Of a DNA stretch of 43,847 nucleotides, positions 8,148-43,847 are shown piece by piece. Position numbers and translations under genes: made by a program. Under the pieces are notes generated by a model that saw only the letters and a list, made by a program, of their open reading frames with translations, was not told where the DNA came from and searched no databases. Numbering within the stretch: position 1 is the first letter of the stretch; every line of letters begins with the position of its first letter. Source of the stretch: Collodictyon triciliatum. Taxonomy: Eukaryota. Where the stretch lies: positions 1-43,847 of the forward strand of contig JBHJMP010000929.1 of assembly GCA_043381765.1 (NCBI GenBank), written 5' to 3'.

Positions 8148-8391
8148 TGTAAGGGGATGTCCTTTTATTCTGTTATAAGCTTTTTGTATGATTCTCAACC
8201 TATTAAAGAGTTGACGGACTCGTTAAATATCCTCTGGACGAAGGGTTCAGGGGAGGTTTCTGAGAAAGTTCCTGGAGCGTCCCACGGTGGTTCTTTGGAC
8301 TGATTCTAATAACATACTTGGAGAATTCCGAGATGGGTCTTAGAATCAGATCACAGATTCCAAGGACGCACTTGGGTGCCCAGTTGTTACA
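8148..8391 (-). repeat. 3' LTR (244 bp)
   Basis: tgtaaggggatg...cagttgttaca; direct repeat of 13223-13466 with 18 mismatches by manual count. Confidence 0.95.
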
Positions 8392-11600: not shown

Positions 11601-13141
11601 CTTTCGTTTCTCTTAGACCATCCGTCTTGGATGTTTTCTCTGCTACTGGTAATGCCTTCCATTTTATCCGCCGATCGTTCTATCGGCACTCGTTTCTCTT
11701 CACTATGATTATATTCTCTCTTCGGTGTCTGCGTCCTTCTTGGGTATGTATAACCACGTTCCTTTCTTCCTGGATTAAACCTGACCTTTTCTCTTTCTTT
11801 GCAGTCGTCCATTTCGTATCTCTCTGTGTTTCTTCGCCATTCTTCGCGCTTTCTGCGGTTCCATTCAGCGTTCAGCCTCGATATGTCTTCTGTTTTGTTC
11901 GGCGGACTCCTGTAGTCGCTCCTGTGCGGGCCCTTATTTCCAACGAACGTGGCTATCTTTCCAGCGTCTTCCTCTTTGAACTGTATGTCTCCCGTCTTCC
12001 AATCGATATGAGGGTTGGCGTCTTCTAGCCAAGGTATTCCGACAATCACGTCGTAATCATCTAGATCAATTACCAGATAGTCTGACTTGGTGCGCATGCC
12101 TCTTATATTTATATGTAGCTGGCGTGCTATCTCGTGGCAAAATATATACCTCCCATCTGCTAGTCTTATTCTTATCCTCTGTTGTGGTTCTTCTAATTCC
12201 ACCTTCAATCTTCGCACCAACTTTCGGGCAATGAAGTTTGCCGATGACCCTGAGTCAATCATTACTGTAACTTCGTCCCTCATCAGCCTCCCGCTGACCA
12301 CGAGAAGTGGTCGCGTCCACATTTCCTTGTCCTTTGGGTCCTCCGTAACACGTATCTCCAAGCTATGATTCCCTATATGTCCTTGGTGGAGAGGAGTGTC
12401 TTGGTACGCCGCAGTAACCCGACCCACGGTTACTGAGGTTTCTCTTTTTCCCGACATTGATGCTCTTGAGGCAGTCGGGTTCGGGCAGCGACGCGCGACG
12501 TGCCCTGGCTTTCCGCAGGAGTAGCAGCTATTATGTCTCCCACCTACGCGATCGTAGGTATCTTGCCTCTTCTCTCCGTCTTCTGCTCCTCCTCGTGGTT
12601 TAACTTGTCGGCTGTCGCTGTGGCTGGAGAATACTTCTTCGTAGTGGACAGCGTATGCCTGCGCTTCACGGACACTCTTCGGTTCTCGATAATCTACTTC
12701 CAGCTTAGCTCTTGTTCTCAGCCCGGATAGATACCTGTGGATCCTTTCGGCTTCAGTCATCTCCGAGATCGCGTCTACTATCTCGTTAAATGATCGGTTA
12801 TACTCCTCTATGGAGCCGGTTTGTGAGAGTTTGTCTAACTTTAGTCGAAGTAAGCGCTGACTCGTCGCTCCTCTAAACTGTCGGGTTATCGCTTCTCCGA
12901 AGTCCTTCAAGCTTTTAAGCGCTTGCACTTGTCCTTTCTCCTCGTCCGCCCGGTAGCGTAGCCACCATTCTGCTGCGGATCCATCCAGCAGTAAACTTAC
13001 GAACATTAATTCCTGCTCCTGGGGTACCTTGCGTATTTGGAAGAATGTCTCCACCTTGTATAACCATGTCCTCACGTTCTGCCCTGGTGCCCCGGAGAAC
13101 ATATCCGGCGATCGAATGGCTCCCTCTGTGATGGACTGCAT
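8642..13141 (-). CDS. Gag-Pol polyprotein (1499 aa): capsid, CCHC knuckle, aspartic protease, RT, RNase H, integrase
   Basis: [40 protein letters not shown] zinc finger; ITMDFI / SDRD / GQTER (DDE); GPF and [10 protein letters not shown]. Confidence 0.97.
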
Positions 13142-13207
13142 GGTCTATACCCTCGTGCTAGGTTTGGCGTGTTTCTGTTCTCCGATCTTCCTCAGGAAGG
13201 TCACTTC

Positions 13208-22800: not shown

Positions 22801-25800
22801 GTGGAATTAAGAGACACAAATATGGACGTATCGGGCGTAAAGTAATCTCCTGTAATATTAATGCATCCTCCATTCATGGAGATGACTCTGTCATGTTGAA
22901 TTAGCCAATATTTAAAAAATTAAGCACCATAGTGAATAAAGGATAAAGTGAACCAAATTATTTGAAAAGGCATATTTTAATGAAATTTTAACTTCATTTC
23001 GTATTATAAGAATAATCTATTACGGGTTTTCAACAAAAAATATCTGAGGGAAAAAAGCGTTCTTGTTTCTTACAGATATAGATATCGTAGTCTATTTTTT
23101 GAATTTAATAGTTGGTTTACCAATAGAAATTTAGTTTTACCGTGTCTCTTTCGAGAAATATGCATATTAATGTTCTGAACCTGTTTTTTGTAAGTGGAAT
23201 CTTTTGTATCTGGCCATCCAACACTTATCAAATATGAAGTGTCGCCATCGTTGGAACTGTCAGGCTAAATATTATGGAAACTATTACAATTATATAACAC
23301 ACTTGTTCAATTATGGAAGATAATTTATTACCACCCCTTGAATCCCGATAACTTGAGGAGTAGACCAATTTCTATATATAGCCATTTGTCAGTTTTATGA
23401 ATCATATATGGAGACAAATTAAAGATTGAAAATATTAATAAACCTACTCAATATCAAAATAAACATATGAAGGAATCGGAATTCCCTCTTTGCTATTTGA
23501 TGTCATGATTTTAAATCCTACTGGATACGACGGACGGACTCTAAGTGTCTAAATTGTTTATTGCAAGCGTTATTTTTAATACCAAGAAATGGCATGTGCT
23601 ATATATTGAGATGATAATTTTACCAATGTAAAGTTTGCAGACGGCCTAGAATCAGTCTCACTCGTAACTAAGCCGGATGAAGGACTAACGCTTATGTAGT
23701 TTGCTTTTTTCACAGATATGATTTTAGTCTCAGCATGCCATCTTTTACGTTTTCGTTTGAATCATAATATTTTGTTTAATTTTTCGAACATATGCAAAAC
23801 ATCAAGGTTTTTTCATTTTTTAAAAAAATAAATTAATCTCACTATCTTCTGGAGTGCAAATATTATTCGAATGAGTATAACCAGAAACACATCTGCAGGA
23901 GGTTCCTCCTTCACCAGGATTTTCCTCAGAGTTGACATCAATCTGAGAAAGAATGCGTCAGCGAAGGAATTTCGACGGTCATGGTAATGATTTAGGATAT
24001 TCATATTCAAAGCTAAGATATGAACTTTATTGCACGACATAATGGCGATGGAATGTTCTGCTTGGATTTTGGATTTTTCTTCTCGAAACAGTAAACGATA
24101 TGTCTGTCCATGTATTCCTGTTATAAATTTTTATTTTTCATAGAAAAGATAGAAGGCATTCAAATTCCCTTAAATTGTATGCATTAAAACTTTCTATCTG
24201 ACTTTAAATCTCGACGATAGCTAGGTATCGTAATTTTTCTTGAATAATTAAGAGTAAAACACCCTTAAAACTAAAATCTTTATATTCTGCCACACCCTGG
24301 TCATCTGTAATGACAGTTTTTGGTGACACTGTTGACCCAGATGGAAGTTCCGGGATGAAGCTCACTGTACAACATGAAAATCAATTATAATTTTTTATAA
24401 AAAGAAACAATTTGTGCGTTGTTAAACATAAAAAAACAAAGTTTTTCAAAACCCGTGATAGCCACAGGAGATTTGATTGAATTATTGTATTGGTCTTTGA
24501 CTAAAATCCTTGGCCAAGGATTTATGACTCCTGAGTTGGAAAACGAGTTCGCAGGAAGTGGCTCCACTGATTGAAATGAAATGTAAACCAATGACAGTGT
24601 TTTGTATATATATATATTAAAGAAATCTGATAACTGAAAAAAATAATACCAAAAGTGACTAGTGCGGTAGAGGCCATGTACTGGGTGATTTCTATTTATC
24701 ATGTAAAATGAACACATGAGTAATCCACTGTTCTCTTACGATATTTTCATTGAATATATAATTACCATAAGATCTGGCTCATGCAATTACCTATATGTTA
24801 TAGATTATCATTTAATAGATTATTTAAGGTGCGATTGTCAAAGAACTCATTGAAATCAATTTCGGCAAATTTTGGTTGGATTACTCACCCAAAACGTGAT
24901 TATTCACATGGCCGTGGTCATTGGTGGGGAAAGTGCAAAGTTTTGATGAACAAATTTTATTATGTAAATTTATTTATAGAAATGATATTATTTTAAAATG
25001 GAAAACCTTGAATTGAGTGTGATTATACCGCTTCTTGATGAGCTTTTTGATGGGCTTCTTGATGGGCTTCTTGATGGGCTTCTTGATGGGCTTCTTGATG
25101 GGCTTCTTGATAGGCTTCTTGACCCACTTCTTGACCCAGTAATTGACCCACTTCTTGACCCACTTCTTGACCCAGTAATTGACCCACTTCTTGATGCGCT
25201 TCTTGATAGGCTTCTTGATGGACTTCTTGATGGGCTTTTTGATGGGCTTCTTGATAGGCTTCTCGACCCACTTCTTGATGTACTTCTTGATAGGCTTCTT
25301 GATAGGCTTCTTGATGGGCTTCTTGATAGGCTTCTTGATAGGCTTCTTGATGGGCTTCTTGATGGGCTTCTTGATGGGCTTCTTGATGGACTTCTTGATG
25401 GGCTTGTTGATGCGCTTCTTGACCCACTTCTCGACCCACTTCTTGATGTACTTCTTGATAGGCTTCTTGATGGGCTTCTTGATGGGCTTCTTGATGGGCT
25501 TCTTGATGGGCTACTTGATGGGCTTCTTGATGGGCTTCTTGATGCGCTTCTTGATGCGCTTCTTGATGCGCTTCTTGATGCGCTTCTTGATGCACTTCTT
25601 GATGTACTTCTTGATGCGCTTCTTGATGCGCTTCTTGATGGGCTTATTGACGGGCTTCTTGATAGGCTTCTTGATAGGCTTCTTGATGGGTTTGTTGATG
25701 CGCTTCTTGACCCACTTCTCGACCCACTTCTTGATGCGCTTCTTGATGCGCTTCTTGATAGGCTTCTTGATGTACTTCTTGATAGGCTTCTTGATAGGCT

Positions 25801-27019
25801 TCTTGACCCACTTCTTGACCCACTTCTTGATGCGCTTCTTGATAGGCTTCTTGATAGGCTTCTTGATGGGCTTCTTGATGGGCTTCTTGATGGGCTTGTT
25901 GATGGGCTTCTTGATGGGCTTGTTGACGGGCTTCTTGATGCGCTTCTTGACGGGCTTCTTGATGCGCTTCTTGATGCGCTTCTTGATGGGCTTGTTGATG
26001 CGATTCTTGATGCGCTTCTTGACCCACTTCTCGACCCACTTCTTGGTGCGCTTCTTGATGCGCTTCTCGACCCACTTCTCGACCCACTTCTTGATCGAGA
26101 CCTCAATCTGGAATTAACTCTTGATAAAGAGACTGATTGGGTCGCTAAAATAATTGATTTTGTTACTATTGGAGATGAAAAATTTTCAAAAAAAAAAGCA
26201 ACCCTGGATGAACAATTATTCTATGAAGAAAAGAATATGTGAAGTCAATATGCAAAGCGTACATGTGAACTGAAGCCCATTATATTGTATGAGCGCCTTG
26301 TTGTTCTGGGGATCACCGGTAATTTTGAACTTGCATGTATGTGTATTGGACTCAAGTGTTCCAGGTACCACAGGACCATCCATTTTCCAACTACTTCCAT
26401 CCCACGAGTATGTGTAAAGATTGTTGATTTTTTCACCTGAAAGCGTGTGTAAAAGACTATTATTGAGTCGAACAATAGTTCCAAAGTATTGATTATCAGT
26501 GGAGCCATCTAGTCTGCTTTGAAAATTCAGTTGTTTTCCATCAAATCGGTAGACGAAAATGGCCCCGTATGCAACTGCAAAGTCTTTTGGTGAGCAGAGT
26601 TTGCATCCAACAGCTGCATTTCTGTCTTGAATCGAAACAGATGTACCAAATTGAGAATCATTTACTGGAGAAGGATTCTCTATTCGCTGGACTTGACCCC
26701 ACTCGTTGGAATCGGACAAGACAAAGAAATAGACCACGCCAGCGCTATCATATCTCCCGACCGTCTCTATGGGCGCACTCACCAAGGCATGGGTATTGGC
26801 TATTGAGACTGCACTACCAAATCCAACATGCCTTGCTGGCATCGGAATCAATCGAATCACTTGCATATCTACCCATGATGGCTGTGGTGATGCAGTTTTC
26901 GCACTCGAGAACCTTATGAAAAGCAATGAGAATAGCACGACAAAATCTGGTGAAAGAAATCGCCATGGCAACTTTTTCTTTAGCGATTTGGATATCATCG
27001 ACAACAGTGCCCAAGTCAT
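19815..27019 (-). CDS. Large multi-exon surface receptor-like protein: hydrophobic leader, FG-GAP repeats, (SRSx)n stalk, Ig-like, EGF-like, Calx-beta-like, IPT, Cys-rich, multi-pass TM
   Basis: FGSAVSI..APIE, FGTSVSI, YFGTIV (FG-GAP); PRILVKDQYNN / TDDQGVA (Ig-like); CRCVSGY (EGF); SPSSGLVTSE..EG..NWSTPQ (Calx-beta); GGCINITGDYF (IPT); CPGGARIWP..GYW, CSVCQDKYF; several hydrophobic exons. Likely stop at 19815-19817. Confidence 0.8.
25029..26098 (-). repeat. Coding 12-bp minisatellite (~89 units, TCAAGAAGCNNN) encoding S-R-S-[P/A/L/G/T]
   Basis: Obvious 12-nt period. Splice phase (donor ~26261, acceptor ~26167) selects the SRSx frame. Confidence 0.9.
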
Positions 27020-27125
27020 TTTCAGGTATGCTGTATGACTAGATGGATTGAAAGTTTAGTTACGTTAAGATTTTTCCGTATTTTCTTATAAAATAATATA
27101 GCCTTGAAATAGGCATGTGGCAAGA

Positions 27126-27180: not shown

Positions 27181-28082
27181 CAACAGATTGGCAATCATAT
27201 CCTTGAAAGAGTGTGCCGTACGAGCTTCGAATCAACGAAAGTGATTGACACGATGAAAGTAAAAATGAATAGGAATAAATCAAGTGGATATGATGAAAGA
27301 TGTGTAGTGACAAGGCTTCCCTTGAGGCTTGTAAAGAAAAGGCATCAAAGACAAAACTTGCGACAAGCAGAGGAAAAAGAAAAGTGAATCCAGCCAACTG
27401 GAGAGAAAAGGCTCGGAACAAATGCGCGCATTCAGGACAGAAAATGACTGCACCTCGATCAAGCTGGCGTTGAGTTTCAGGTCAGAACTGCTCCATCATA
27501 TCTTATTATAGCCATCACGCCAGTTGACGATTTGCCTCGCCTGTCTGAGTTGAAGCTTGCGGCTTTTTCCTGGCAACGCAGACCTGACAGCATTGGAATA
27601 TATATTTTGTGTTTTCCAAATACGGTTTGAAGACATTGTAGGATGGACGAGGTATTGTGGGTTATGATGAAATTATTTACTAATTATATGTATATTATTG
27701 ATATTAAATTATAGTATTTCTTATTCTATATAACATATAAGAGTAGTGTGTAATTATATCGTCAATTCCATATTAAATTTATGTAACTGGAAAATAAATA
27801 TTTACGACATAAAATAAACTACAGAGCACTACATCAAATTTACTGCTTCTATATAATTAGTATCATATTTTTCTAGCCATTACATAAATGCTATCTCCAC
27901 ATTTGTGAGCATACAAACGCACACACGCCAATCGACAACAACACACGCCCTGTCACACAAACACACGATCGCAGGATGCTTCCCTTTTCGCAAAGAAGAA
28001 AACAACACTCTTCGTGCACGAACAAGACATACTAAGGACAGTCCTTGTGACGGAAGGGTAGGCCCAAACAAGCATCACAGAA

Positions 28083-29038
28083 ATGAAGGGATACTTGCTG
28101 GACGATCCAAGCGTGCTGCTTTCTGCATCGTGGGAGTGGGCAGCGCATGGCATCCACTTCCTGGACTGGACAGGGGCGAGCCATAGTGAGAAAGTGGGCG
28201 AGTGGATGCAGCAGAATGAGGCGATTCATCAGGAGACTCACGTCTGGAAGCCTGAAAGTGCTGAGGTCGAAGGCGAGATCCAACGCTACTCCACTGAGTA
28301 AGAGTTCAACCTTCGACAAAGTCGACTACTCCGGCCCACGGGGCTGAGCCCACCCGAAGTGGTGTGAGCAGTGAATCCGTGACGCAAATATGTGCAGTAA
28401 TGTGGAGAAAAAAAACAAGCAAACAAAAACTCTTTTCCTCAGTGGTTTTCTTCTCGTAGATCCCTTCGCCATCAGCCTGAGCTTCTCTGCATCATTGAAG
28501 GTGAGGCTATCCTGGATGTTAGAAGCAACCTAGACCACTGGATTCGCCTTGAGCTTGTAGCTGGAGATAATCTAGTCCTGGTGACGCTATATTCCATGGA
28601 AAACACGATATCAAGCAAAAGGATTATAGATAACAGATTATGATGATTCCTTTCTGTCATAACCATCCTATCCCTGACTTACCTTTCGGTTATTTGCTCT
28701 TTGTCTGTTCGACTTTAACGATAGAAACAAGGTACCTATCGTCGACTGTTGCGCACACCGGTTCAAAGAGTTACTTTTCTGGAGGCCTACACAAAAAAAT
28801 GGGCCCACCAACTGATAGCTCGTCCTGTTAAAGGCGAGTTGATTAACCCGAGACTCAAAAGGTAAAATACGATAAAAGAAAAAGAAAAAGAAAAAGAAAA
28901 AGAAAAAGAAAAAGAAAAAGAAAAAGAAAAAGAAAAGAAAAGAAAAAGAAAAAGAAAAAGAAAAAGAAAAAGAAAAAGAAAAAGAAAAAGAAAAAGAAAA
29001 AGAAAAAGAAAAAGAAAAAGAAAAAGAAAAGAAAAGAA

Positions 29039-29110
<72 letters not shown>

Positions 29111-30131
29111 AAAGAGGACGCAATAAAATACTATTTCCTAAATATTTATCATCGAACTAGCTACGGCCCGCCTGTTTTGTTCAATGCGTGGCTGGAGGAA
29201 AACAAACAGTTTCTAAAACCACCTGTGGGTGACCGTCCCATGTGGAATGATGGAGAGGTACCATTCCTTGCTCTGTTTTTATTTTATTTTATTTTATTTA
29301 TTTCTAGATTTCTACAATTTCTTGCTGTAATGAACGCTCTCATAATTTCAAAAGCAATTATTTTAGTGGCATAACTGTGCTTATTTTGGCAGTTTATCGT
29401 TATGATTGTGTCTGGCCCTAATCTCCGACGCGATTACCACATAAACCAAGGAGAGGGTTTGTATACATTGAAATGGGTCCAAAAGAGAATCCCTCGTACC
29501 AACAGCCCAAAAAAATCACTATATTTGCACTAGAATTCTTCTACCAATTGAGGGGAGACATGTGGCTTGCAATTGAGGACCAGGGCGTGTTTCGTGATAT
29601 CCCAGTGCGTGAAGGAGAAATGTTTGTTTTGCCTGGGGGTGTCCCCCACTCACCCCAGCGAAAGGTGGCTTCCTTTAAAAATCATAATGTGGACAACACG
29701 AATTCGTGTCGATTTTTCTTTTTGCCCGACGGGTGCATTGTGTTTTCGTAGCAGCCCAACAGCCTGATACCCCGCAATATTGAAGATTATTTTCTTGCTT
29801 TTTAGGCCAATACGGTTGGGTTAGTGATTGAAAGGCGCAGGAAAGAGGGCGAGTTGGACGGTCTCCGTTGGTATTGTGACCACTGTGGAAAAGTGCTGAA
29901 GGAGGTGCAAATATCATTATTTTTGATAATACGCAATCACAAACAATTTGATGTTTGTAATAATTGCCAGTCCATGCGATTGAAATCTGACATTGGATGG
30001 CTTAGGACTACTTTCAATGCGTGAGCTTGGGAGCGCAGCTTCGAGAGAAAATCCACGAGTTCTATTCAAACACAGAAATGCGAACATGCAAATCTTGTGG
30101 GAAGGTCTCCGAAAAGCCGGTGGATGTCTAA
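28083..30131 (+). CDS. HAAO: Fusion protein (8 exons, ~329 aa): acireductone-dioxygenase-like cupin + 3-hydroxyanthranilate 3,4-dioxygenase
   Basis: Exons 28083-28297, 28460-28580, 28725-28861, 29161-29257, 29393-29456, 29534-29664, 29806-29904, 30006-30131; all GT-AG, 990 nt open. HAAO motifs LKPPVG, GPNxRxDYH, EEFFYQ, PHSPQR, GLVIER, CDHC/CKSC. ARD-like motif ILDVR..DHWIRL....GD. Confidence 0.85.
28875..29114 (+). repeat. Polypurine microsatellite (AAAAAG)n-(GAAA)n inside intron 3 of the fusion gene
   Basis: Read directly from the sequence. Confidence 0.97.
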
Positions 30132-30796
30132 ATTACGAAAGCACAGCAGTTTGGGCCAAATGACTACAGACACAGCAGAATAAATAGAAAGTTTTAACGC
30201 ACTCAAAAACTTGCTTGTTGCGAGCATGCATTCCCGAGGGAAATGCATTGAAGCCCTTGACTAATTTGTACGAATCAGCTTATTCCCTCACTCCTCGGCC
30301 CTGCCTGACCAGCGCTGACAACTTCTAGCCTGATTATGTCTTTCCTGCCCTGCGAGCACAAGAAAAAAAAAATACGCGTTTAGCACCACTTCCACTTTTC
30401 ACTTTCCGCTTTCCGTCGGCGATAATCTGTCTCTGCCCTTTCAATGTCCCTCTGTTTCCACATATAGTAAACTCCGCAATTGGTTAGTATCAACAAATCC
30501 ACATAGAGCATGAATGGCCGGGACACGCTTACGCACGCAACAGAACGGGCTTTCCCTTTCCTGACGCAGAACCACACATCCGCATTCCAACCCAGGAACA
30601 CAACCACAGCACCGATGCAAGGCGCGTATGATATGCAGACATATATCCTCCACACATAAACATTTGGTAGAAGCATACGTCTCGGCCCCTTGCATCCACA
30701 CTGAACTACCCACGAATCTGCCCGCCCACAATCCGCACTAACAACCGCGTCTCTATGCAGCACAGATCCCCACCAGAAAACCCCGAAACCGCACAA

Positions 30797-33623
30797 ATGA
30801 GCACAGAGACAGGTTTGCCGCTCCGCCCTCAACCTCCTCCCCGCACAAGCCTGACCACCTGCTCAGTAACCAATTGCCGTACTGATGCCACACACACCAT
30901 CCCCTCCCAACAACTCTCTGCCTCCTTCTCACAACAGAGCTCCTTCCCTCCCGCTTCGGCCAGTTTGGCGGCCGCTACATTCCCGAGACCCTTGTTGAAG
31001 CCCACGAGCAGCTCGAAGTGGCCTACGTCAAAGCCAAGGCCGACCCTGAGGTGATCCTCATCCTCCTTCGTGCCCTTCCAAGCGCAGAGATATTGGGCAT
31101 GGCCGCAATATTCTCTTGCTATGTTTGCTGCTACCTCTCTCGTCCGCGTCAACTTTCTGTCGGCTGCTCCGAATCTGCCTGCACGATGCCCGAAGAAACC
31201 ACACATCACTCACCTCGTCCTTCCGGGACGCTCATAGTTTCAAAGAGAACTGGCTGAGTTGTGGAAGCACTATGTCGGACGCGCCACACCCTTGTTCCAT
31301 GCCAAGCGACTGACAGAGCACTGTGGAGGCGCGCAGATCTGGATCAAACGCGAGGACCTTGCCCACACCGGCGCTCACAAAATCAACAACGCAATCGGGC
31401 AGGCAAGACTGACTCTCCCTCTTCCTCTCCCGATTCATACTTAGACAAGTTCTCTCTGTCTCTCTGTCTCTCTATTGCACTCGCGTTTGTGGGTGGCACT
31501 TTGTCTCAACATGCGGTTTGCACATTTCTTGCTTGTTTGTTTGTTTGTTTGTTTGTTTGTTTGTTTGTTTGTTTGTTTGTTTGTTTGTTTGATTGTTTGT
31601 TTGTTTGTTTGTTTGTTTGTTTGTTTGTCTGTCTGTCTGTCCAGGCACTTCTTGCCAAGAGACTCGGGAAGAAGCGCATCATAGCAGAGACCGGCGCCGG
31701 TCAGCACGGTGTCGCCACAGCCACTGCATGCGCACTACTGGGTCTAGACTGCACGGTGAGGACGAAGCCGAACTAGACATTGACTCTCATTCCCTCAAAT
31801 AACCTCCAACTAAGTCCCGCCATTACGCTTTCCTTTTGAATGGAAGTTGCCGTGATGGTCTCCCTCTCTAGCGCTCTGTCATTTTTTTTTAAAAAATATT
31901 CCCCTTATTGTACTTTTGTTTCCTTGTTCCTCTGTGTCGCTGAGCTGCACCCCTCACCGACTTCCAGGTCTACATGGGTGCCGAAGACTGCATGAGACAA
32001 TCTCTGAATGTGTTCCGCATGAAAATGCTCGGGGCCAAGGTTGTTCCAGTGGAGCAGTAAGTGTACCCAATCATCTCCCTTTCAACATACACCAACCAAC
32101 CAATCAACAAACAAACAAACACATACGTACACACACGCGCGGAAAAGAAAGACTGAGACAGAGATGTGTCCCTTCGTGGTCTTCTGTAACATACATAACC
32201 CCCTTCCATCGTGTACCGCCTCTATCTATTAACCGGGAAACGTTGCGGCAATAGCGGCTCCCGGACATTGAAGGATGCCATTAACGAAGCCATGCGCGAC
32301 TGGGTCACAAATGTCCAGACCACCCACTACATCATCGGCTCTGCAATCGGACCTCATCCATTCCCAACCATCGTCCGTGACTTCCAGGTGCGCCTATATG
32401 CAACCCAAATGCCGTGCCTTCCCGCCGCCCAACTAACGACAGCCGATTATTATTCCGTCGAAATAGAGCATCATCGGTAAAGAAGCACGCCAACAGATGA
32501 TTGAGCAGTCAGGCAACCTTCCAGACTATGCGGTGGCTTGCGTCGGCGGAGGAAGCAACGCTATTGGTCTTTTCCACCCTTTCGTCGAAGACAAGGTATA
32601 ACTCCCAGTTCCAAGTCCTCCTCGTTGCATAGGAAACCTGCGAGTAGCAGTTCCCTCTCATACTCAACTTTAATAACACATGATTCGCTCATGCCCAGAC
32701 TGTCAAGTTGGTTGGCGTAGAAGCAGGAGGTGAAGGCATTGACAAGGGAAAACACTCGTCCACGCTCTCTGCTGGAAAACCAGGTAAGGCTACCACACCG
32801 ACATTCCCTAGTCTCACCAATAACGGCCCGCTCTGGTGTTCTGCGCGCAAGACACGCCAGAGTAGACCTTCCTTGTGAACCGGATATTGACCAGGTGTTC
32901 AATCCAGGTGTTCTTCACGGAACAAGAACATACCTCATTCAGGATGAGAACGGACAAATCCTGGAAACCCACAGGTGCTCCGCGAACACATACCCACCCT
33001 CGCCAAAATCACAATCGCCAAGACAGTAACACAGACCACTCACACCACCCTGAAATCCTCCACTCACAGCATCTCCGCCGGACTGGACTACCCTGGCGTC
33101 GGTCCCGAGCATGCATTCCTCAAGGACAGGTCAGCATGCCTCCAATCGTGTAGTATCAATCTAAGAAGTCCACCTTGGTGCTTCCTCTGACCTTGTCGCC
33201 TCTCCTCACTCTGCCTTCCACGCAGCGGTCGCGCTGAATACGTAAGTGTGACCGACGAGCAGGCTCTGGACGGGTTTCAAAAGCTCGCACAGCTCGAGGG
33301 TATTCTACCTGCATTGGAGCCATCGCACGCCGTCTACTACGTGATGGAGGTAATGCACTCGACCCTCTCTTTCTCTCTCACGGCTTCGGCACTCGCGCGA
33401 ATAACATATGGGTAGATGAGGATGAGGATTGACACAAACAAACGCCCCGCCGATGTAGCTGGCAAAGAAGCTGAGCCCCGACCAAACGATTCTCTTGCTG
33501 ATGAGTGGCCGAGGCGACAAGGACATGGCCACCATCGCTAAGGCTCTTGGCGTCGTTGTTAAGGGCGCCTCCCTCGAGTTTGCCAATGCTGCCGAGACCA
33601 CCACCGCACCAAACAACCATTAA
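30797..33623 (+). CDS. trpB: Tryptophan synthase beta subunit (TrpB1-type), stand-alone, 12 exons, ~418 aa
   Basis: Exons 30797-30812, 30938-31050, 31238-31402, 31645-31755, 31968-32056, 32255-32387, 32467-32595, 32699-32783, 32908-32974, 33070-33129, 33226-33349, 33459-33623 (1257 nt open). Motifs [51 protein letters not shown]. Confidence 0.96.
31530..31640 (+). repeat. (GTTT)n/(GTCT)n microsatellite in trpB intron 3
   Basis: Read directly from the sequence. Confidence 0.97.
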
Positions 33624-34682: not shown

Positions 34683-37600
34683 ATGACTGTGAGCCTTCTA
34701 ATGGCGATAGGATTGCTCTACTATGTGGTGCCAGTACTGGGGCAATGTACCGTACCCAGCGAGCAACCCTTCGGTCTTGTGCTGAACCCTGACCTCTCCA
34801 TCTCCAGCTGCCTTGGCTCCACCATCAACCCGCAACCCCCTAGCATGGTGGCCTCTATCAACCAATGGCTCCCGGAGTACAGCAACCCAGCCCCGGAGAT
34901 TACCAGCACGAGCAATAATCCCAATCTCGTCTTCACGTCCACCAGCACCATTCATATCACTTTTATCACTGAAGGTGCCGGGCTCCGTAATTCGCTTGGA
35001 TATTTCGTGTTCGATGGCAAGCAGAACATCATCTCCAAGAACGTTGTTTTTCCCGATGTATCGAACTCCCCAACCACCCTCCAGACTGGTCAAACAGTCG
35101 AGATAGGGCCGTTCTCAGCCGGGCGAAGAGTTGGTTTCTTCCTGATTGCGAATGGGTTTACCAACAAGTTCTGGTCCACCGACCTATCCGGCTCCACCTA
35201 TTACTCTATCTGGACAAAGAACCCAGACGGGAAGCAGCACATAGCAATGTTCACTGAAAGTACCTCTGGTAAAATTATGATCGGCTTTGAGGACTTATAT
35301 AACCTTGGAGACGCTGATTATAACGACGTTATTTTTTTCGTCACAGTGGACGGTTCCATCGAAAATGACCAATTCCCAACCACTCTCCTGGTGACCACTC
35401 CGATGAACATAGACGTTAAGTTCACGCTTCAGTTGAGTGCTGGTACTGCAGCTTCAATTAAGTTTCTGTCTCTCCCCTCGCACGGAGTTCTTTCCCAAGT
35501 GAACGCAGACGGAACAAAGGGCACTGCAATCACTTCAACGACTGCAACGGTTACGAACACAAATTCCTATCTTGTGTTTACACCAGCAACCAACACCAAT
35601 GGCCAGCCCTATACGACCTTTTCTGTTGAGGAGAAGTTGGTTAATGGACAGACTGTTCCTGTTATTGTGCGCATCGACGTCTTATCTCATGCACCATACG
35701 CCCCGACCCCCGTCCCAGCCTCTGTCACAACCACGGCTGCATTTCTCACGGTCATTCAACTCACTGGCACAGATGCGAACAATCTCAACCTATTCGCTAC
35801 AATTGCCACGCTGCCAACACACGGTGTTCTATTCCAATACAACGCCGGTGCGAAAGGGACCCAGATCACCGCAAACACTGCTGTCACTGACCCTGTGAAC
35901 CGTGTCTTCTACCAAAGCAATTATACTTACAACAATTCTGCTATTTCAGACTCTTTCCAATTCAAGATGACGAATAACATGATAATGTCTGGAAATGCTC
36001 AAATCTCTATCACCGTAAACTTGAGACCCAACAGTGCCCCAACCTCTTCGCCAGTTACCATAACCATTAACCAAAATAGCAATGGAGCACTTGATATAAT
36101 TGCCACTGATGAAAATGGTGACCCTTTGACTGCAACGATTCTTACAATCCCATCAAATGGTCAAATTTTCACCACTCCTGATGGGATTTCTCATGGAAGT
36201 CAAATTACCACGGTAGGAACAGTTCTCCCAAATCTCACTCCGACCTCCTGGCGAGTGATGGTCTCGCCCACGACAAACCTCTACGGCACCGCACTGATGA
36301 CATTTCATTTCGAAGTGAAGGATTACATATCATCCAATACGTATACGGCCACCGTAAACGTAAATTTCGTCAACCAGCCGCCTGTATCGTCCCCAGTCTC
36401 CCTGACAATTCAAGAGAGCAGCTCATCGAATTCGATTGTCAACAACTTGTGGAGTGTCCATACTAACTGTGACCCCGATAACATAGTTTCGACGCTGTCA
36501 TTCACAATTGTAACCGTTCCAAACTTTGGAAATCTCGTGGATAACACTGGAGCAATCATTTCGTCAACTTCACTCCCAAGAACATTTGCATATGGCTCTC
36601 AGGTGTCATACAACCCACCTTATATCGGATACGGGACACCTTACGCCACTTTTACTTTTCGTGTTACTGACAATCGAAATGGAGTCTCTGCTACAAACAC
36701 GTATATCATCAACGTCAACCACGTGAACCACGCCCCCACAGCGACTGTGCCGACAGCAGTCAGCACTGACCTGAATGTCGCAGCTTCGATTGTACTTTAT
36801 GGACAAGACGACGATGTGGGCGACACCCTGAGCTTTGCCGTGACAGCGCTACCGACCAGAGCTGGGTCATCACTTATGATAGGAAGCATGGCTCTTACAG
36901 CTAACACAAAGTACTCACTTCCATCCAACGGAGTGACGCTGACATACATGCCAGCAGCGAACCAGTTCTACACTGATCAAATTACTGTACAAGTCAGCGA
37001 CAATAGCCAGGCGACCGACACCAAGGCTGTTTCGATTATGGTCAACTATGTCAACATCGCGCCTGTAGCTCAAGCTCTTAGCGTCACCACAGATGAAGAC
37101 AAGTCGGTGACCATCACATTATTAGCGACCGATGCGAATATCCCAGCTGAAGACGTCACGTACACTGTCCGCACTCTTCCAAAAAAGGGCACGCTGTCTT
37201 TTGAAGGGAAGGCGATTACGACCGTACCATTTTCACTTGGGTCATCGACAAGCGTAAGCTTCTTGAGCGCACTGTACTCGTTTGGAGACCCATACACAAG
37301 CTTCACCTACACGGCCAACGACGGAAAGGCAAACTCTTTACTTGCGACAGTGACCATATCAGTCAACCATGTCAATCACCCGCCAGTAAGTGTAATTTCT
37401 GCAAATCCCCTCCTTACCAACCGATATACGCCGGTCGCTTTCACTATCACACCAAATGACTTCGATGCAAACAACCAAGTTCGAGTGAAATTTGCCATTC
37501 CGAACAACTTCCTCGGTGTGTTGTCAATCAATGGTGCAGCTATATCAAATGGATATGAGACACCAATGGGTGCTGTCCTTAACCCAATCACGCTAGTCTA

Positions 37601-40600
37601 CACTCCACCGTTCCTTGATAGCAATATGGACTATGGAGACCGCCTAGATACGTTCCAATACACTGTGATTGATAGCAACGGACTCGCTGCCGCCATCGCC
37701 TCGGTGCCTATTGACGTGACCTACGTTGCACGCGAGCCCGCAATCACATCAAGTCCTTCAACCATCTCAATCCAGGAGCAACAGCAGCGCTTGACAACAT
37801 TGAGCACGAACGAAAGAGACGGACTACCAGTTACCGTCTTCATCGCAAGCATACCCACGAACGGGAAGTTGTACATCGCTAACGACCAAGGAGCACCCAC
37901 TGGAGCAGCCCTCGAAAACGGTCAAGTGATTGCCACTGACAGCTTCGGTGACACGACTACCCGCATCGTCTATGTTGCGCCCATTCCGCCATCTGTGTTT
38001 GTCTCTCTAGGGGCAAACAGAGATTCATACAAGATATCTTGCAAAAACAGTGGTGAGACCTCGACTGTAACAGTCAATGTTAATGTGGCTGACAGAAACT
38101 TTGCTCCCTTTGTCAGTGCGACTATTCCGACCGTTACCATCCAGTCCTCCCAAACCGCACAGACTGTGATATTCACCGTCAGTGGTGTCGACCCGGATTC
38201 AAACCCCATTAACGCTATTGTGACCAGTATCACAGCTATGCCTGGAGTGACCGCCACAAACGGTGATATCGCACTGGTTACCAACAGCCCACTCCTTAGA
38301 GCACCCACAGGCTCTAACACATGGCTTATCACTGTAAACGTTCCCGCTCTTACATTCGGTACAGTCGCAAGCATCGTTGTTGTCACCAGAGACTCCCTCC
38401 AGGCCACTTCAAACCCACTAACTCTCAGCCTTACCATCAACCGCGTCAACTTCGCTCCAGTAGCAACAACCACAACCATACCAGAATGCGATGAAGACAG
38501 CTTTGTCGACATTCAGTTGAGAGGCCAGGATGACAACCAAGACGCCATCACTGCATACATATCTCAGCTGCCTTCCATCGGCACCCTCACATATGGCGGG
38601 GCAGCAGTCACAACAAGCACACCTCTTGTGATGACGAATGGCGCGACCACCATCCGATATACACCACCGCTGCTGAATGACGGGAGGCCGCTGACAACAT
38701 TCCGATACTATGTGAATGACGGACAGCTTCGATCGAATGAGCAGACACTTGCAATCAACGTCAACCATGTCAATCATGCACCCACAGCAGTCACACAGAC
38801 TCCAGTATCAACAAACCTTAACACTGCAGCGTCTATTGTTATCAAGGGACAGGACGTGGACGCAGGAGATACACTGACTTTCAAGGTCACGAGTCTACCT
38901 ACCACTGTGGGCTCACCGCTTTCCATGGACAACATGCCAATCACGGCAGGCACAGTCTATCCGCTGACATCAGCTGGCGCCACTCTGACATACACACCTG
39001 CTCAGAACCGACACTACACTGATCAAATTACCGTACAAGTCAGCGACAATAGCCAGGCGACCGACACCAAGGCTGTCCCGATAGTGGTGAACTATGTCAA
39101 CATCGCGCCTGTAGCTCAAGCCCTTAGCGTCACCACAGATGAGGACAAGTCGGTGACCATCACATTATTGGCGACCGATGCGAATATTCCAGCTGAAAAC
39201 CTGAAGTACACCATCCGCACTCTTCCGACAAAGGGCACGCTGTCTTTTGAGGGGAAGGCGATTACGACTGTACCGTTTTCACTTGGGTCGTCGACAAGGG
39301 TAAGCTTCTTGAACTCACTGTACTCGTTTGGAGACCCATACGCAAGCTTCACCTACACGGCCAACGACGGAAAGGCAGACTCTGTATCTGTGACAGTGAC
39401 CATATCGGTCAACCATGTTAACCACGCGCCTGTGAGCACAATATCCTCCAATCCCCTCCTTACCAACCGATATACGCCGGTCACTTTCACTGTTACACCA
39501 AACGACTTTGATGCCAACAACCAAGTTCGAGTGAAATTTGCCATACCAAACAACTTCCTCGGTGTGTTGTCAATCAATGGTGCAGCTATATCTAATGGAT
39601 ATGAGACACCAATGGGTGCTGTCCTTAACCCAATCACGCTTGTGTACACCCCCCCTGCTGCTGGAGCCACACCAGACTATGGAACTGGACTCGATACATT
39701 CCAGTACACGGTGATTGACAATCAACTCGCAACAACATTAGTGACAGTCCCCATTAACGTCGCCTTTGTTGCGAGAAACCCAACCATTTCTTCGAATCCA
39801 TCCTCTGTATCCATCCAAGAACAGGAGCAGAAGATTACTACCATCAGCACAAGTGACCCTGATAATCTCCCTGTCTCATTGATTGTATCAAGCATCCCAG
39901 CGAACGGAAAATTGTACCTTACCAATACACTCGGGCAAGTAACTGGAGACGCTCTTCGAAATGGACAACTGTTAGCCACGGGTAGCCAGGGTAGTTCGTC
40001 TGTTCAAATTATTTACGTTGCGCCCATTCCACCATCTGCACTTGTGTCTCTTGGAGCTAACTCTGATACATACACCATAATGAGCCAAAACAGCGGCAAG
40101 AGCTCGACTGTTACAGTCAATGTTAATGTGGCTGACAGAAACTTTGCTCCCTTCGTCAGTGCAACAAACCCATCCGTAACCATCCAGTCCTCCCAAACCG
40201 CACAGACTGTGATATTCACCGTCAGTGGTGTCGACCCGGATTCAAACCCCATTAACGCTATTGTGACCAGTATTACATCGAAGGATGTTGTCATCACAAA
40301 CGGTGGTAGCGCACTGGCCACCAACAGCCCACTCCTTAGAACACCCACAGGCTCTAACACATGGCTTATCACTGTAAACGTTCCCGCTCTGACATTCGGT
40401 GCAGTCGCAAGCATCGTTGTTGTCACCAGAGACTCCCTCCAGGCCAGTTCAAGCCCACTAACTCTCAGCCTTACCATCAACCGCGTCAACTTCGCTCCAG
40501 TGGCAACAACTACAACCACACCAGATTGCGATGAAGACAGCTTCGTCGACATTCAGTTGAGAGGCCAGGATGACAACCAAGACGCCATCACTGCATACAT

Positions 40601-40685
40601 TTCTCAGCTGCCTTCCATCGGCACCCTCACATATGGCGGGGCAGCAGTCACAACAAGCACACCTCTTGTGATGACGAATGGCGCG
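34683..40685 (+). CDS. Giant secreted adhesin-like protein, N-terminal part: signal peptide, DUF4114-like domain, tandem bacterial Ig/cadherin-like (Big_9/tandem-95-like) modules
   Basis: ~2000 uninterrupted codons. Signal peptide MTVSLLMAIGLLYYVVPVLG; EGAGLRNSLGYF, GFFLIANG, IGFEDLYNLGDADYNDVIF; repeated NxAP...DxD.D.L...LP..G.L...Y.P...F.Y.V.D modules. Confidence 0.9.
36713..40685 (+). repeat. Intragenic tandem duplication, period ~2040-2046 bp (six modules)
   Basis: gatcaaatta..gacaccaaggctg at 36975 and 39021; atgacgaatggcgcg at 38631 and 40671. Confidence 0.93.
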
Positions 40686-41683
40686 NNNNNNNNNNNNNNN
40701 NNNNNNNNNNNNNNNNNNNNNNNNNNNNNNNNNNNNNNNNNNNNNNNNNNNNNNNNNNNNNNNNNNNNNNNNNNNNNNNNNNNNNNNNNNNNNNNNNNNN
40801 NNNNNNNNNNNNNNNNNNNNNNNNNNNNNNNNNNNNNNNNNNNNNNNNNNNNNNNNNNNNNNNNNNNNNNNNNNNNNNNNNNNNNNNNNNNNNNNNNNNN
40901 NNNNNNNNNNNNNNNNNNNNNNNNNNNNNNNNNNNNNNNNNNNNNNNNNNNNNNNNNNNNNNNNNNNNNNNNNNNNNNNNNNNNNNNNNNNNNNNNNNNN
41001 NNNNNNNNNNNNNNNNNNNNNNNNNNNNNNNNNNNNNNNNNNNNNNNNNNNNNNNNNNNNNNNNNNNNNNNNNNNNNNNNNNNNNNNNNNNNNNNNNNNN
41101 NNNNNNNNNNNNNNNNNNNNNNNNNNNNNNNNNNNNNNNNNNNNNNNNNNNNNNNNNNNNNNNNNNNNNNNNNNNNNNNNNNNNNNNNNNNNNNNNNNNN
41201 NNNNNNNNNNNNNNNNNNNNNNNNNNNNNNNNNNNNNNNNNNNNNNNNNNNNNNNNNNNNNNNNNNNNNNNNNNNNNNNNNNNNNNNNNNNNNNNNNNNN
41301 NNNNNNNNNNNNNNNNNNNNNNNNNNNNNNNNNNNNNNNNNNNNNNNNNNNNNNNNNNNNNNNNNNNNNNNNNNNNNNNNNNNNNNNNNNNNNNNNNNNN
41401 NNNNNNNNNNNNNNNNNNNNNNNNNNNNNNNNNNNNNNNNNNNNNNNNNNNNNNNNNNNNNNNNNNNNNNNNNNNNNNNNNNNNNNNNNNNNNNNNNNNN
41501 NNNNNNNNNNNNNNNNNNNNNNNNNNNNNNNNNNNNNNNNNNNNNNNNNNNNNNNNNNNNNNNNNNNNNNNNNNNNNNNNNNNNNNNNNNNNNNNNNNNN
41601 NNNNNNNNNNNNNNNNNNNNNNNNNNNNNNNNNNNNNNNNNNNNNNNNNNNNNNNNNNNNNNNNNNNNNNNNNNNNNNNNNNN

Positions 41684-43847
41684 ACCGAGAGCGAAGGAGT
41701 CAATCCTGACTATGGAAATGAGTACGGCAGTGTCAGTTTTGTAGTTTTTGACAATGCTGATAGCGCAAACTCACAGTCTTCCACCGCAGTCACAGTTAAC
41801 ATCCGGTTTATATCTCGCAAACCGTCAGCTCACAGCGACTCGAATGTGATTAATGTGCAAGAGCGTGAGTCGGGCAGTGTGACCATCAGTGGAAGCGATA
41901 AAGACAATCTCGAGGTCACCCTTGTTTTGAAGAGCGCACCGCCCGCAGGGTCACTGTTCTTGCCAGGAAACGCCACAGCCTTGTCAAATGGAGATGTCAT
42001 CGGCAAGGGCGTGTCACCAAGTGTCACACTCAAATATGTCACACCACAACCATCAAGCGTGTACTCATCAACTGGAGCAGAGAGCGAGTCCTTCACGTTT
42101 TCAGCCAGCAATGGTGACAAATCAGCGGATAGCAAGGTGGACATCAGCATCAAGGATGTCAACTTTGCACCGTTTGTGTTTGCGACTGAAGAAAATGTCA
42201 CCACACCTGATTCACAATCAATCAGAACTGTTACATTTGTCTTAAGTGGAGTCGACCCGGATAGTGATGTCATCAATGCTTACATTATCAGCCACACAAA
42301 TACTCAAATTAAGCTCCAGCAAGACGGCCAAGATATCGACATCACTCAGCCTCTGAAAAAGACAACCGATGGACTTTGGAAGTTCGATGTTGTTGTGCCA
42401 GCTCTGTATGTCGGTGAGGTCGATAGAATCAAGGTGTACACACAAGACCCGCTCGGACTCAAGTCCAGCGACCTGGAGCTTGTGGTGAGAACCTCGTATG
42501 TCAACTTTGCACCTATCGCCACTACAACTAGCATTCCTGCATTTGATGAAGACCAATCGGTGACATTTGCACTGAGTGCAAAGGACGACAACAAGAACGA
42601 CACATTGAGTGTATTCATCAGCAGCCTACCAAGCATCGGCATCCTCAGCGACTCTGACGGAAATGAGATTGTATCAAACAGCACGGCGATAAGCGGAGGA
42701 GCAAACAGAGAGTGGACATTGACATACACACCGCCGAAGTATACGTTCGGCAGTCCGCTGACATCGATTCGCTACTATGTGAGCGATGGAAACTCTCAGT
42801 CGGCCGAGCAAACCCTATCTATCTTCGTCAATCATGTCAACCACGCACCTGAAGCCTCTGCTCAAACTCTCGTATACTTATATGAAAACTCCTTCTCAGA
42901 AATGACTCTGATCGGAAATGACGTGGACAAATTTGACAATTTAACTATTCACTTCAGCAGCATCCCGTCATCTGTAGAGTCACTTGGCTCAGAGTTTATA
43001 CTTGTCTCTTCAAATAAGGCAATCACGACTAATGAGACCTACGCACTTCCACGCGAAGGAGTCAAGGTCAGATTCGCACCACCGAAGTTCCGATTCTTCA
43101 ACGATAGCTTCACATTTGAGGTGAATGACGGACAATACAGCTCGTCCTTGACAGTGAAGCTGACGACTCTCGACCTGAACCATGCGCCAGTCGGCTACTC
43201 TCAGACGCCTGACATGGACGAAGACGGAGAGCTCCTGATTACGCTATCGGGCGACGATGAGGACATACCTGAAGACACGCTTAGCTATCGCATATCTTCA
43301 CTACCTAGTCGAGGTGACCTGTACGACGGAAACGTCACAGTGACAGATGGTTATGAGCTTAGAGGTAACACAGTGACCTTCAGGCCACCAAAGATTACCT
43401 ACGGCACTCCATACACATCGTTCACTTATACCGTGTTCGACGGTAAGACGTCATCGACCAAGCAGTCCATCATCATCAATGTCCGTCACATCAACCATGC
43501 ACCGACCATCAGCACATCATCATCTTCTATCACCATCGACCGATACGGACAAGGAAGCTTTGTCGTAGGAGCACGAGACGTCGACTTGATGGACACCATA
43601 TCTCTTCGTGTTGTGATTCCTTCACTGAAAGGCAAGGTTATGTACAACGGAAGTCAAGTGAGCGACGGAGATGTTCTTGAGTACTCTGAGACATCACTGA
43701 CAGAGACCTTCACGTATGTCGGACCCACCGAGAGCGAAGGAGTCAATCCTGACTATGGAAATGAGTACGGCAGTGTCAGTTTTGTAGTTTTTGACAATGC
43801 TGATAGCGCAAACTCACAGTCTTCCACCGCAGTCACAGTTAACATCC
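41684..43847 (+). CDS. Continuation of the giant adhesin (or a paralogue) after the 998-N gap; open to the window end
   Basis: Frame from 41684 reads TESEGVNPDYGNEYG...KDVNFAP...SYVNFAP...VNHVNHAP...LNHAP...INHAP, the same six-module order. The ORF-track stop at 41744 is a gap-length frame artefact. Confidence 0.85.

Follow-up and report, generated by a model that had tools for sequence, protein, structure and literature searches.

Fusion of an acireductone dioxygenase-derived pseudoenzyme domain to 3-hydroxyanthranilate dioxygenase in Collodictyon triciliatum

Contig JBHJMP010000929.1 of Collodictyon triciliatum (GenBank assembly GCA_043381765.1), a freshwater relative of Diphylleia, analysed here over positions 1 to 43,847 (hereafter the window), carries on its forward strand, at 28083-30131, a gene in which a domain of the acireductone dioxygenase family (ARD, or ADI1 in animals) is joined to 3-hydroxyanthranilate 3,4-dioxygenase (HAAO). 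One gene, one mRNA and one protein of 329 amino acids are involved, and the combination is a real and conserved ARD-HAAO domain architecture, apparently undescribed in the literature searched. The N-terminal domain has lost three of the four ARD metal ligands, and all mapped catalytic and structural residues of the HAAO half are kept. Taken as a whole, the data are best explained by an active HAAO bearing a non-catalytic, ARD-derived accessory cupin, a two-cupin HAAO reached independently of animals; in our judgement this overall account stands at an even balance between right and wrong.

The coding sequence amounts to 990 nt, distributed over eight exons and seven introns, every intron being bordered by GT..AG (Table 1). 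It starts with the ATG at 28083, preceded in frame by a TAG at a distance of 24 nt, and ends with the TAA at 30129-30131, 10 residues past the last cysteine. At the border between exons 3 and 4 (AAA AG|gt...ag|C TAC GGC), the 14 residues around the joint read in frame exactly as had been written in an earlier, sequence-only reading of this stretch, and the joined coding sequence bears this out with an uninterrupted open reading frame (ORF). The linker between the ARD-derived domain and HAAO measures about 10 residues.

Transcript evidence came from Logan contigs of four RNA-type runs compared with positions 28000-30200, these being assembled contigs and not raw reads. The runs were taken to be cDNA because their contigs skip introns precisely and one of them has a loose end, presumably a template-switch oligo. 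Six of the seven splice joints were tabulated as GT..AG joints, that between exons 1 and 2 in X1 and joint 28580|28725 in X1, X2 and X3. Joint 28861|29161, which carries the fusion, was missing from this table, in which rows at the intron repeat were skipped, and was read instead from the table of contig pieces. In X2 record 4, record positions 188-323 lay on 28724-28859 and 91-187 on 29159-29255; in X3 record 7 (839 nt), positions 88-223 lay on 28724-28859 and 224-320 on 29159-29255, followed by all HAAO exons up to 30200. In both records, 28859 is followed by 29159 with no record position between them (187|188 and 223|224, respectively), a step which equals 28861|29161 owing to a 2-nt AG ambiguity, and each had about 97 nt or more on either flank of the exon 3/exon 4 joint. 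X2 is a freshwater metatranscriptome from study P2, 99+% alike to the window, and X3, from study P1, is 95-99% alike. X1 record 1 spans the 5' leader and exons 1-3, with an in-frame TAA and no ATG in the 45 nt before the start codon, and contig coverage takes the 3' untranslated region (UTR) to at least 30200. Runs X4, X5 and X6 contributed small shares of sampled words, X4 covering exons 4-6 only, and no habitat was deduced from them.

X1 record 1 opens with 22 nt and then joins the genome at 28060, directly after a TAG usable as a 3' splice site. This 22-nt leader had no match anywhere in the 43.8-kb window with up to three mismatches allowed, and the papers listed in a search on it did not mention 'spliced leader'. 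It may stem from trans-splicing of a leader, from a 5' UTR exon farther away or from a difference between strains.

The same architecture was found in a second organism. Of 36 candidates from a protein search with exon 6, 34 passed at E <= 0.001; 33 of these were HAAO-only proteins (128-405 amino acids) and the remaining one was EP00002_Diphylleia_rotans_P015187 of EukProt (hereafter P0004), a transcriptome ORF of 336 amino acids assembled by Trinity and marked complete. Its precomputed Pfam labels are ARD, 3-HAO and Cupin_2. Both families were detected above their curated cut-offs, which are 25 bits for 3-HAO (PF06052) and 27 bits for ARD (PF03079): 3-HAO at residues 173-315 (3.8e-56, 189.4 bits, profile positions 10-151 of 151) and ARD at residues 58-134 (6.3e-13, 49.7 bits, profile positions 67-142 of 157). 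P0004 and the window protein have in common their layout, their start (the first ten residues encoded by exon 1 align with MKAYFLEDPS), the junction (..YGPP..), the stop and the ligand substitutions Arg/Glu/Arg. P0004 differs in belonging to another lineage, in seven extra residues within two N-domain insertions, and in having Phe instead of Ser at the position of ADI1 His88. Identity between the two proteins reached 84% in the HAAO half (144/172) and 52% in the N-domain (82/157, with 7 gap columns), the latter being unevenly spread over exon 1 (44%), exon 2 (70%) and exon 3 (49%). On this comparison, the fusion is older than the split of the window lineage and the D. rotans lineage.

It could be objected that two neighbouring genes were joined by misassembly at a microsatellite or by read-through, an ARD-like gene ending at the TAA at 28863-28865. 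Exon 3, if left unspliced, would indeed meet this TAA after ...RLKR, a 240-bp microsatellite of (AAAAAG)n/(AAAG)n units (28874-29113) sits within intron 3, and the RNA data are assembled contigs. Nevertheless, the spliced contigs of two studies join in frame at exact GT..AG borders, the ORF of the D. rotans transcript is likewise fused and complete, and no trace of a separate HAAO start was apparent, which together make such an artefact barely credible. The sequence-only reading, which had proposed the fusion and remarked that the HAAO part had no obvious ATG of its own, was right on both counts. No ATG was found in the 299 nt of intron 3, and within the HAAO part an in-frame ATG first occurs at 29240 (Met185), downstream of the conserved N-terminal HAAO segment and preceded by an out-of-frame ATG at 29184. 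Likewise, the RNA contigs compared with 28000-30200 showed no loose contig end at 29161, and these three observations argue against a start of HAAO's own.

In the HAAO half, exons 4 to 7 each matched Pfam 3-HAO, with exon 6 (1.4e-14, 54.5 bits) and exon 7 (40.2 bits) passing the cut-off, and exon 8 alone gave no 3-HAO match. The best relatives of the HAAO half of P0004 in the PDB were bovine and human HAAO (1.5e-49), followed by the yeast enzyme (7e-43) and bacterial HAO (about 6e-40). Residues were mapped on PDB 1yfu by means of the exon 6 alignment (1yfu residues 58-99), the P0004 offsets and identical motif positions. In 1yfu, we take His51, Glu57 and His95 to form the iron triad, Arg47, Arg99 and Glu110 to bind the substrate, and four cysteines to make up a rubredoxin-like site (Cys4). 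All ten mapped residues were kept in the window protein (Table 1). An AlphaFold2 model of P0004 displayed a beta-rich barrel with a block-mean predicted local distance difference test (pLDDT) of 86-97 over most of the HAAO half. These data strongly point to residues ~160-329 being a complete, short-type 3-hydroxyanthranilate 3,4-dioxygenase, predicted to be active, which should turn 3-hydroxyanthranilate into 2-amino-3-carboxymuconate semialdehyde (ACMS) on the kynurenine route to NAD.

For the ancestry of the N-terminal half, several lines of comparison were combined. Exon 2 aligned with residues 92-126 of mouse and human ADI1. Residues 69-135 of P0004 aligned without gaps with residues 77-143 of the mouse ADI1 chain in PDB 5i8s (1.7e-8). 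A home-built bacterial ARD profile aligned window residues 40-135 over two exon junctions (15.9 bits, E 3.8e-7), this E value assuming a search space of one and the profile being made from 17 of 18 ARD domains in 81 genomes of one bacterial phylum. When the N-domain alone (residues 1-165) was compared with the ESM Atlas through language-model features, all rows displayed were ARD clusters, with scores of 0.93-0.94. The sequence-only reading had suggested a Pfam scan of the spliced protein for both families. Scanned one exon at a time, the window yielded 3-HAO in exons 4-7, the ARD match of exon 2 stayed below the cut-off at 21.3 bits (3.3e-4), exons 1 and 3 were each without any Pfam match, and only in P0004 did both families exceed their cut-offs. 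These alignments show that residues 1 to ~150 descend from acireductone dioxygenase.

The metal ligands of ADI1 are His88, His90, Glu94 and His133, according to a figure legend (PMC8315008, Fig. 3). Their positions are occupied by Ser73, Arg75, Glu79 and Arg118 in the window protein, and by Phe80, Arg82, Glu86 and Arg125 in P0004. The 3-His-1-Glu site of ARD is thus reduced to one ligand of four, equivalent to Glu94, and an arginine stands at two of the histidine positions in both lineages. The sequence-only reading had called this domain a pseudo-ARD, and the three replacements agree with that designation: with three of four ligands lost, the N-domain is to be regarded as an ARD-derived pseudoenzyme domain and no normal ARD, and for the same reason it would hardly connect HAAO enzymatically and directly with methionine salvage. 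A bifunctional enzyme, in which the N-domain would be an active ARD with unusual ligands, could draw on the clear ARD-family ancestry and on the retained Glu94. However, Ser or Phe, Arg and Arg at three of the four ligand positions, the first of which (that of His88) even differs between the orthologues, leave it next to no likelihood.

Table 1. Features of the ARD-HAAO gene in the window, with residue equivalences to ADI1 and to PDB 1yfu
Feature	Positions	Strand	Content
5' UTR	28060..28082	+	Within RNA contig X1 record 1
Exon 1	28083..28297	+	Start codon, then N-terminal stretch of the ARD-derived domain, residues 1-72; joint 28297|28460 in X1
Exon 2	28460..28580	+	ARD-derived cupin core; Ser73, Arg75 and Glu79 at ADI1 His88, His90 and Glu94; Pfam ARD 3.3e-4
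Exon 3	28725..28861	+	Second cupin motif, with Arg118 for ADI1 His133; rest of the ARD-derived domain towards its C-terminus; short linker; phase 2 end
Intron 3	28862..29160	+	299 nt, mostly microsatellite; removed in X2 record 4 and X3 record 7
Exon 4	29161..29257	+	Fusion codon AG|C = Ser158, and N-terminal HAAO strand; Pfam 3-HAO profile positions 6-33
Exon 5	29393..29456	+	Arg202 and His206 = Arg47 and His51 of 1yfu
Exon 6	29534..29664	+	HAAO cupin core; Glu212, His250 and Arg254 = Glu57, His95 and Arg99 of 1yfu; aligns with 1yfu residues 58-99
Exon 7	29806..29904	+	Glu264 (= Glu110 of 1yfu) and Cys279/Cys282, first Cys pair of the rubredoxin-like Cys4 site; Pfam 3-HAO 3.4e-10
Exon 8	30006..30131	+	Cys316/Cys319, second Cys pair of the Cys4 site; TAA stop

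Loss of the metal site raises the question of whether the N-domain is maintained at all. Between the window and the RNA contigs of related strains, nine of ten coding differences were synonymous, namely five of six in the N-domain and four of four in HAAO. Neutral evolution would be expected to give 22-30% synonymous differences, so that P <= 0.012 for the N-domain. Within this small sample, the comparison shows purifying selection on the N-domain, and because the domain is also conserved in a second diphylleid lineage, it has a function. A decaying relic of an old fusion, tolerated as an N-terminal extension, would be in keeping with the lost catalytic ligands, with an evolution much faster than that of the HAAO half and with an exon 1 devoid of detectable relatives among 1.84 billion representative proteins, barring three spurious matches to repeat proteins. 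Such decay appears decidedly improbable, however, in view of a frame that is open in both lineages, of the silent nature of most N-domain differences between strains and of the P0004 N-domain, which still scores above the ARD cut-off.

A function having been retained, its nature can be approached from the known enzymes. Bacterial and yeast HAAO are homodimeric. The sequence-only reading had offered two possible roles for the extra domain, a substitute for the homodimer partner or a regulatory module between methionine salvage and NAD synthesis. In the fused protein, the N-domain might act as a non-catalytic cupin partner within the same chain, stabilising or shielding the barrel of HAAO, and its role would be that of the second subunit in the bacterial and yeast homodimers or of the degenerate C-terminal cupin in animal HAAO. 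By analogy with these enzymes, we tentatively favour this structural role as the most economical, at somewhat less than an even chance.

Several observations weigh against it. Within the N-domain, conservation is highest in exon 2, where the active site of ARD used to be, and the two substituting arginines are conserved; a ligand-binding pocket accounts for this pattern no less well than a purely structural role does. Selection was tested on just six differences in the N-domain, read from contigs instead of raw reads. A minor or rare HAAO-only isoform may exist as well, the transcript evidence being of the same kind. Finally, the AlphaFold2 model of P0004 lends no support to a contact between the two domains, its N-domain being unusable: residues 1-34 and 88-155 had pLDDT <50 and spurious helices, because the alignment supplied covered the HAAO half only. 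MAFFT misplaced the ARD rows and the ARD-like exons of the window onto the HAAO cupin when these were mixed with HAAO sequences, and consequently no joint two-domain alignment was available for folding. Automatic alignments of a protein made of two cupins, such as this ARD-HAAO fusion, will mislead structure prediction.

The conservation pattern can also be read in terms of a small-molecule sensor: the dead ARD pocket, with its ex-metal site lined by arginines, would bind an anionic metabolite from the kynurenine branch or from methionine salvage and thereby tune HAAO allosterically. Both orthologues have Arg at the His90 and His133 positions together with the retained Glu94, the pocket-forming exon 2 is the best kept of the three N-domain exons, and the N-domain is under purifying selection. 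On the other hand, neither a ligand nor a precedent came to light in the literature searched, the AlphaFold2 model yielded no pocket, and strands of the barrel core are conserved in any folded cupin, which makes their conservation unspecific for a binding site. We consider such a sensor unlikely, though the conserved arginines make it a rival to be taken seriously. In a narrower form, two conserved arginines and the retained glutamate would have been re-used for a carboxylate metabolite (ACMS, which is the unstable product of HAAO, quinolinate, into which ACMS cyclises, or a methionine-salvage keto acid), which we hold to be quite unlikely. If true, an allosteric or product-handling module would have arisen in diphylleids at the point where NAD synthesis branches, and a pseudoenzyme domain from one oxygen-dependent pathway would now control another.

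A further possibility is based on reported non-catalytic features of ADI1. The ADI1 protein is described as binding MT1-MMP at its cytoplasmic tail, and mutation of all four metal ligands as abolishing catalysis while leaving other cellular effects in place (PMC8315008). The N-domain, conserved and under selection, might accordingly re-use this metal-independent partner binding and, as a module for protein docking, recruit or localise HAAO. Nothing in the window indicates a partner, though, and the animal partner MT1-MMP would not be expected in this protist; docking seems improbable to us, and the built-in partner cupin is retained as the working interpretation.

Several known systems can be compared with the fused protein. 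Animal HAAO (bovine 3fe5, human 2qnk and 5tk5; 285-290 amino acids) provided the best PDB matches of the HAAO half (1.5e-49 to 4.1e-49) and likewise combines a catalytic cupin and a second cupin-like region in a single chain. In 3fe5 and 2qnk (285-286 amino acids), HAAO is matched over residues 3-158, and residues 178-271 form a second stretch that is weakly cupin-like. This extra region is C-terminal and aligns weakly with HAAO itself, whereas the extra domain of the window protein is N-terminal and of ARD origin, and a metal-free second cupin C-terminal to the catalytic domain, which defines the animal type, was not found in the window protein. Moreover, the rubredoxin-like Cys pairs kept in the window protein are absent from the animal enzymes in the PDB alignments. 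Single-domain bacterial and yeast HAO (1yfu, 174 amino acids; 1zvf, 176 amino acids) share the length class, the iron triad, the Arg/Arg/Glu set and the Cys4 site with the window HAAO half, but have no N-terminal domain; the nearest database proteins to exon 6 were of 170-195 amino acids, with 57-69% identity over that exon. ADI1/MtnD enzymes (PF03079; 4qgn, 5i8s, 1vr3) are homologous to the N-domain over the cupin core, but they possess four ligands and are free-standing, whereas the window domain has only the equivalent of Glu94 and is fused to HAAO. The MtnBD protein of Tetrahymena thermophila is another ARD-family domain fused to a second enzyme in a protist; its partner is the neighbouring methionine-salvage enzyme and its ARD part is described as functional (PMC3698126), as opposed to the partner from an unrelated pathway and the dead ARD of the window protein.

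Evaluation of the distribution of the fusion was restricted by the search tools, relative searches being limited by word or by length and eukaryotic proteomes being thinly sampled. A search with the N-domain of P0004 among proteins of 184-588 amino acids recovered P0004 itself only, out of 79 candidates. With exon 1 as query, a word-indexed set of 5.8 billion gave 15 candidates, none of which scored, and a representative set of 1.84 billion gave three matches (1.2e-5 to 7.8e-4) that were judged spurious, all of them repeat proteins of bacteria (Flg_new and the like) aligned over more than one stretch. Metagenome scans produced 95 pattern matches with exon 1 and 128 with an 87-residue part of P0004, and none was confirmed in either case. 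An Atlas search with whole P0004, covering clusters of at least 50 members, gave only 3-HAO clusters among those displayed, and no ARD+3-HAO cluster. Similarly, the literature searched contained no paper joining 3-hydroxyanthranilate, acireductone dioxygenase and fusion. The suggestion of the sequence-only reading that this architecture was undescribed thus holds within the searches made, which provided no ARD+3-HAO protein beyond P0004. It should be added that the combination was already present, unremarked, in the precomputed Pfam labels of that public EukProt protein. Provisionally, and on the sequences at hand, the fusion would be restricted to diphylleids, and it could serve as a marker of the diphylleid lineage within CRuMs.

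HAAO acts where de novo NAD synthesis branches, and why the animal enzyme has a metal-free cupin in addition is, to our knowledge, not settled. Should an unrelated lineage of protists have independently added a different dead cupin at the opposite end, this suggests that a partner barrel benefits the catalytic one, and the fused protein would then offer a natural comparison for testing the function of that partner. In addition, the gene cleanly illustrates how selection can retain a pseudoenzyme domain once it has been fused. Being a fusion of a single lineage, its reach would be limited unless a regulatory role is shown.

The window is eukaryotic in character, with spliceosomal introns, a Ty3/gypsy element, a long interspersed nuclear element (LINE) and microsatellites. 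The next gene, at ~30930-32300 on the plus strand, starts about 800 bp past the HAAO stop and opens with the N-terminus of tryptophan synthase beta (residues 2-41 of TrpB in the PDB, 1.3e-7 to 1e-5) and an exon with a PALP domain. The head-to-tail arrangement of this tryptophan-making gene with a tryptophan-catabolic gene of the NAD pathway may be a matter of chance. Further downstream, at 34683-43846 on the plus strand, an intron-free ORF of >2353 amino acids with assembly gaps (runs of N) contains bacterial-type cadherin-like, Big_9, DUF4114 and SibA-like Ig repeats, together with a large internal tandem duplication.

Upstream of the fused gene, positions 24974-26242 are occupied by ~1.2 kb of short-period, coding-like repeat with several frames open on both strands (periodicities LLD.., KKPI.. 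and SRS..) and a strong AT skew. A LINE-like element lies at 5674-8300 on the plus strand, in which an ORF for an endonuclease domain is followed by reverse transcriptase-like stretches broken over several frames. On the minus strand, 8642-13144 harbours an unbroken Ty3/gypsy gag-pol ORF of 1500 amino acids, with capsid, zinc knuckle, protease, reverse transcriptase, RNase H, integrase and an SH3-like tail; the element looks intact and is possibly active. The upstream neighbour of the fused gene, on the opposite strand at 26216-27055, matched FG-GAP_2 repeats (1.5e-7) and probably represents one exon of a surface protein of the integrin-alpha-like or VCBS-like kind.

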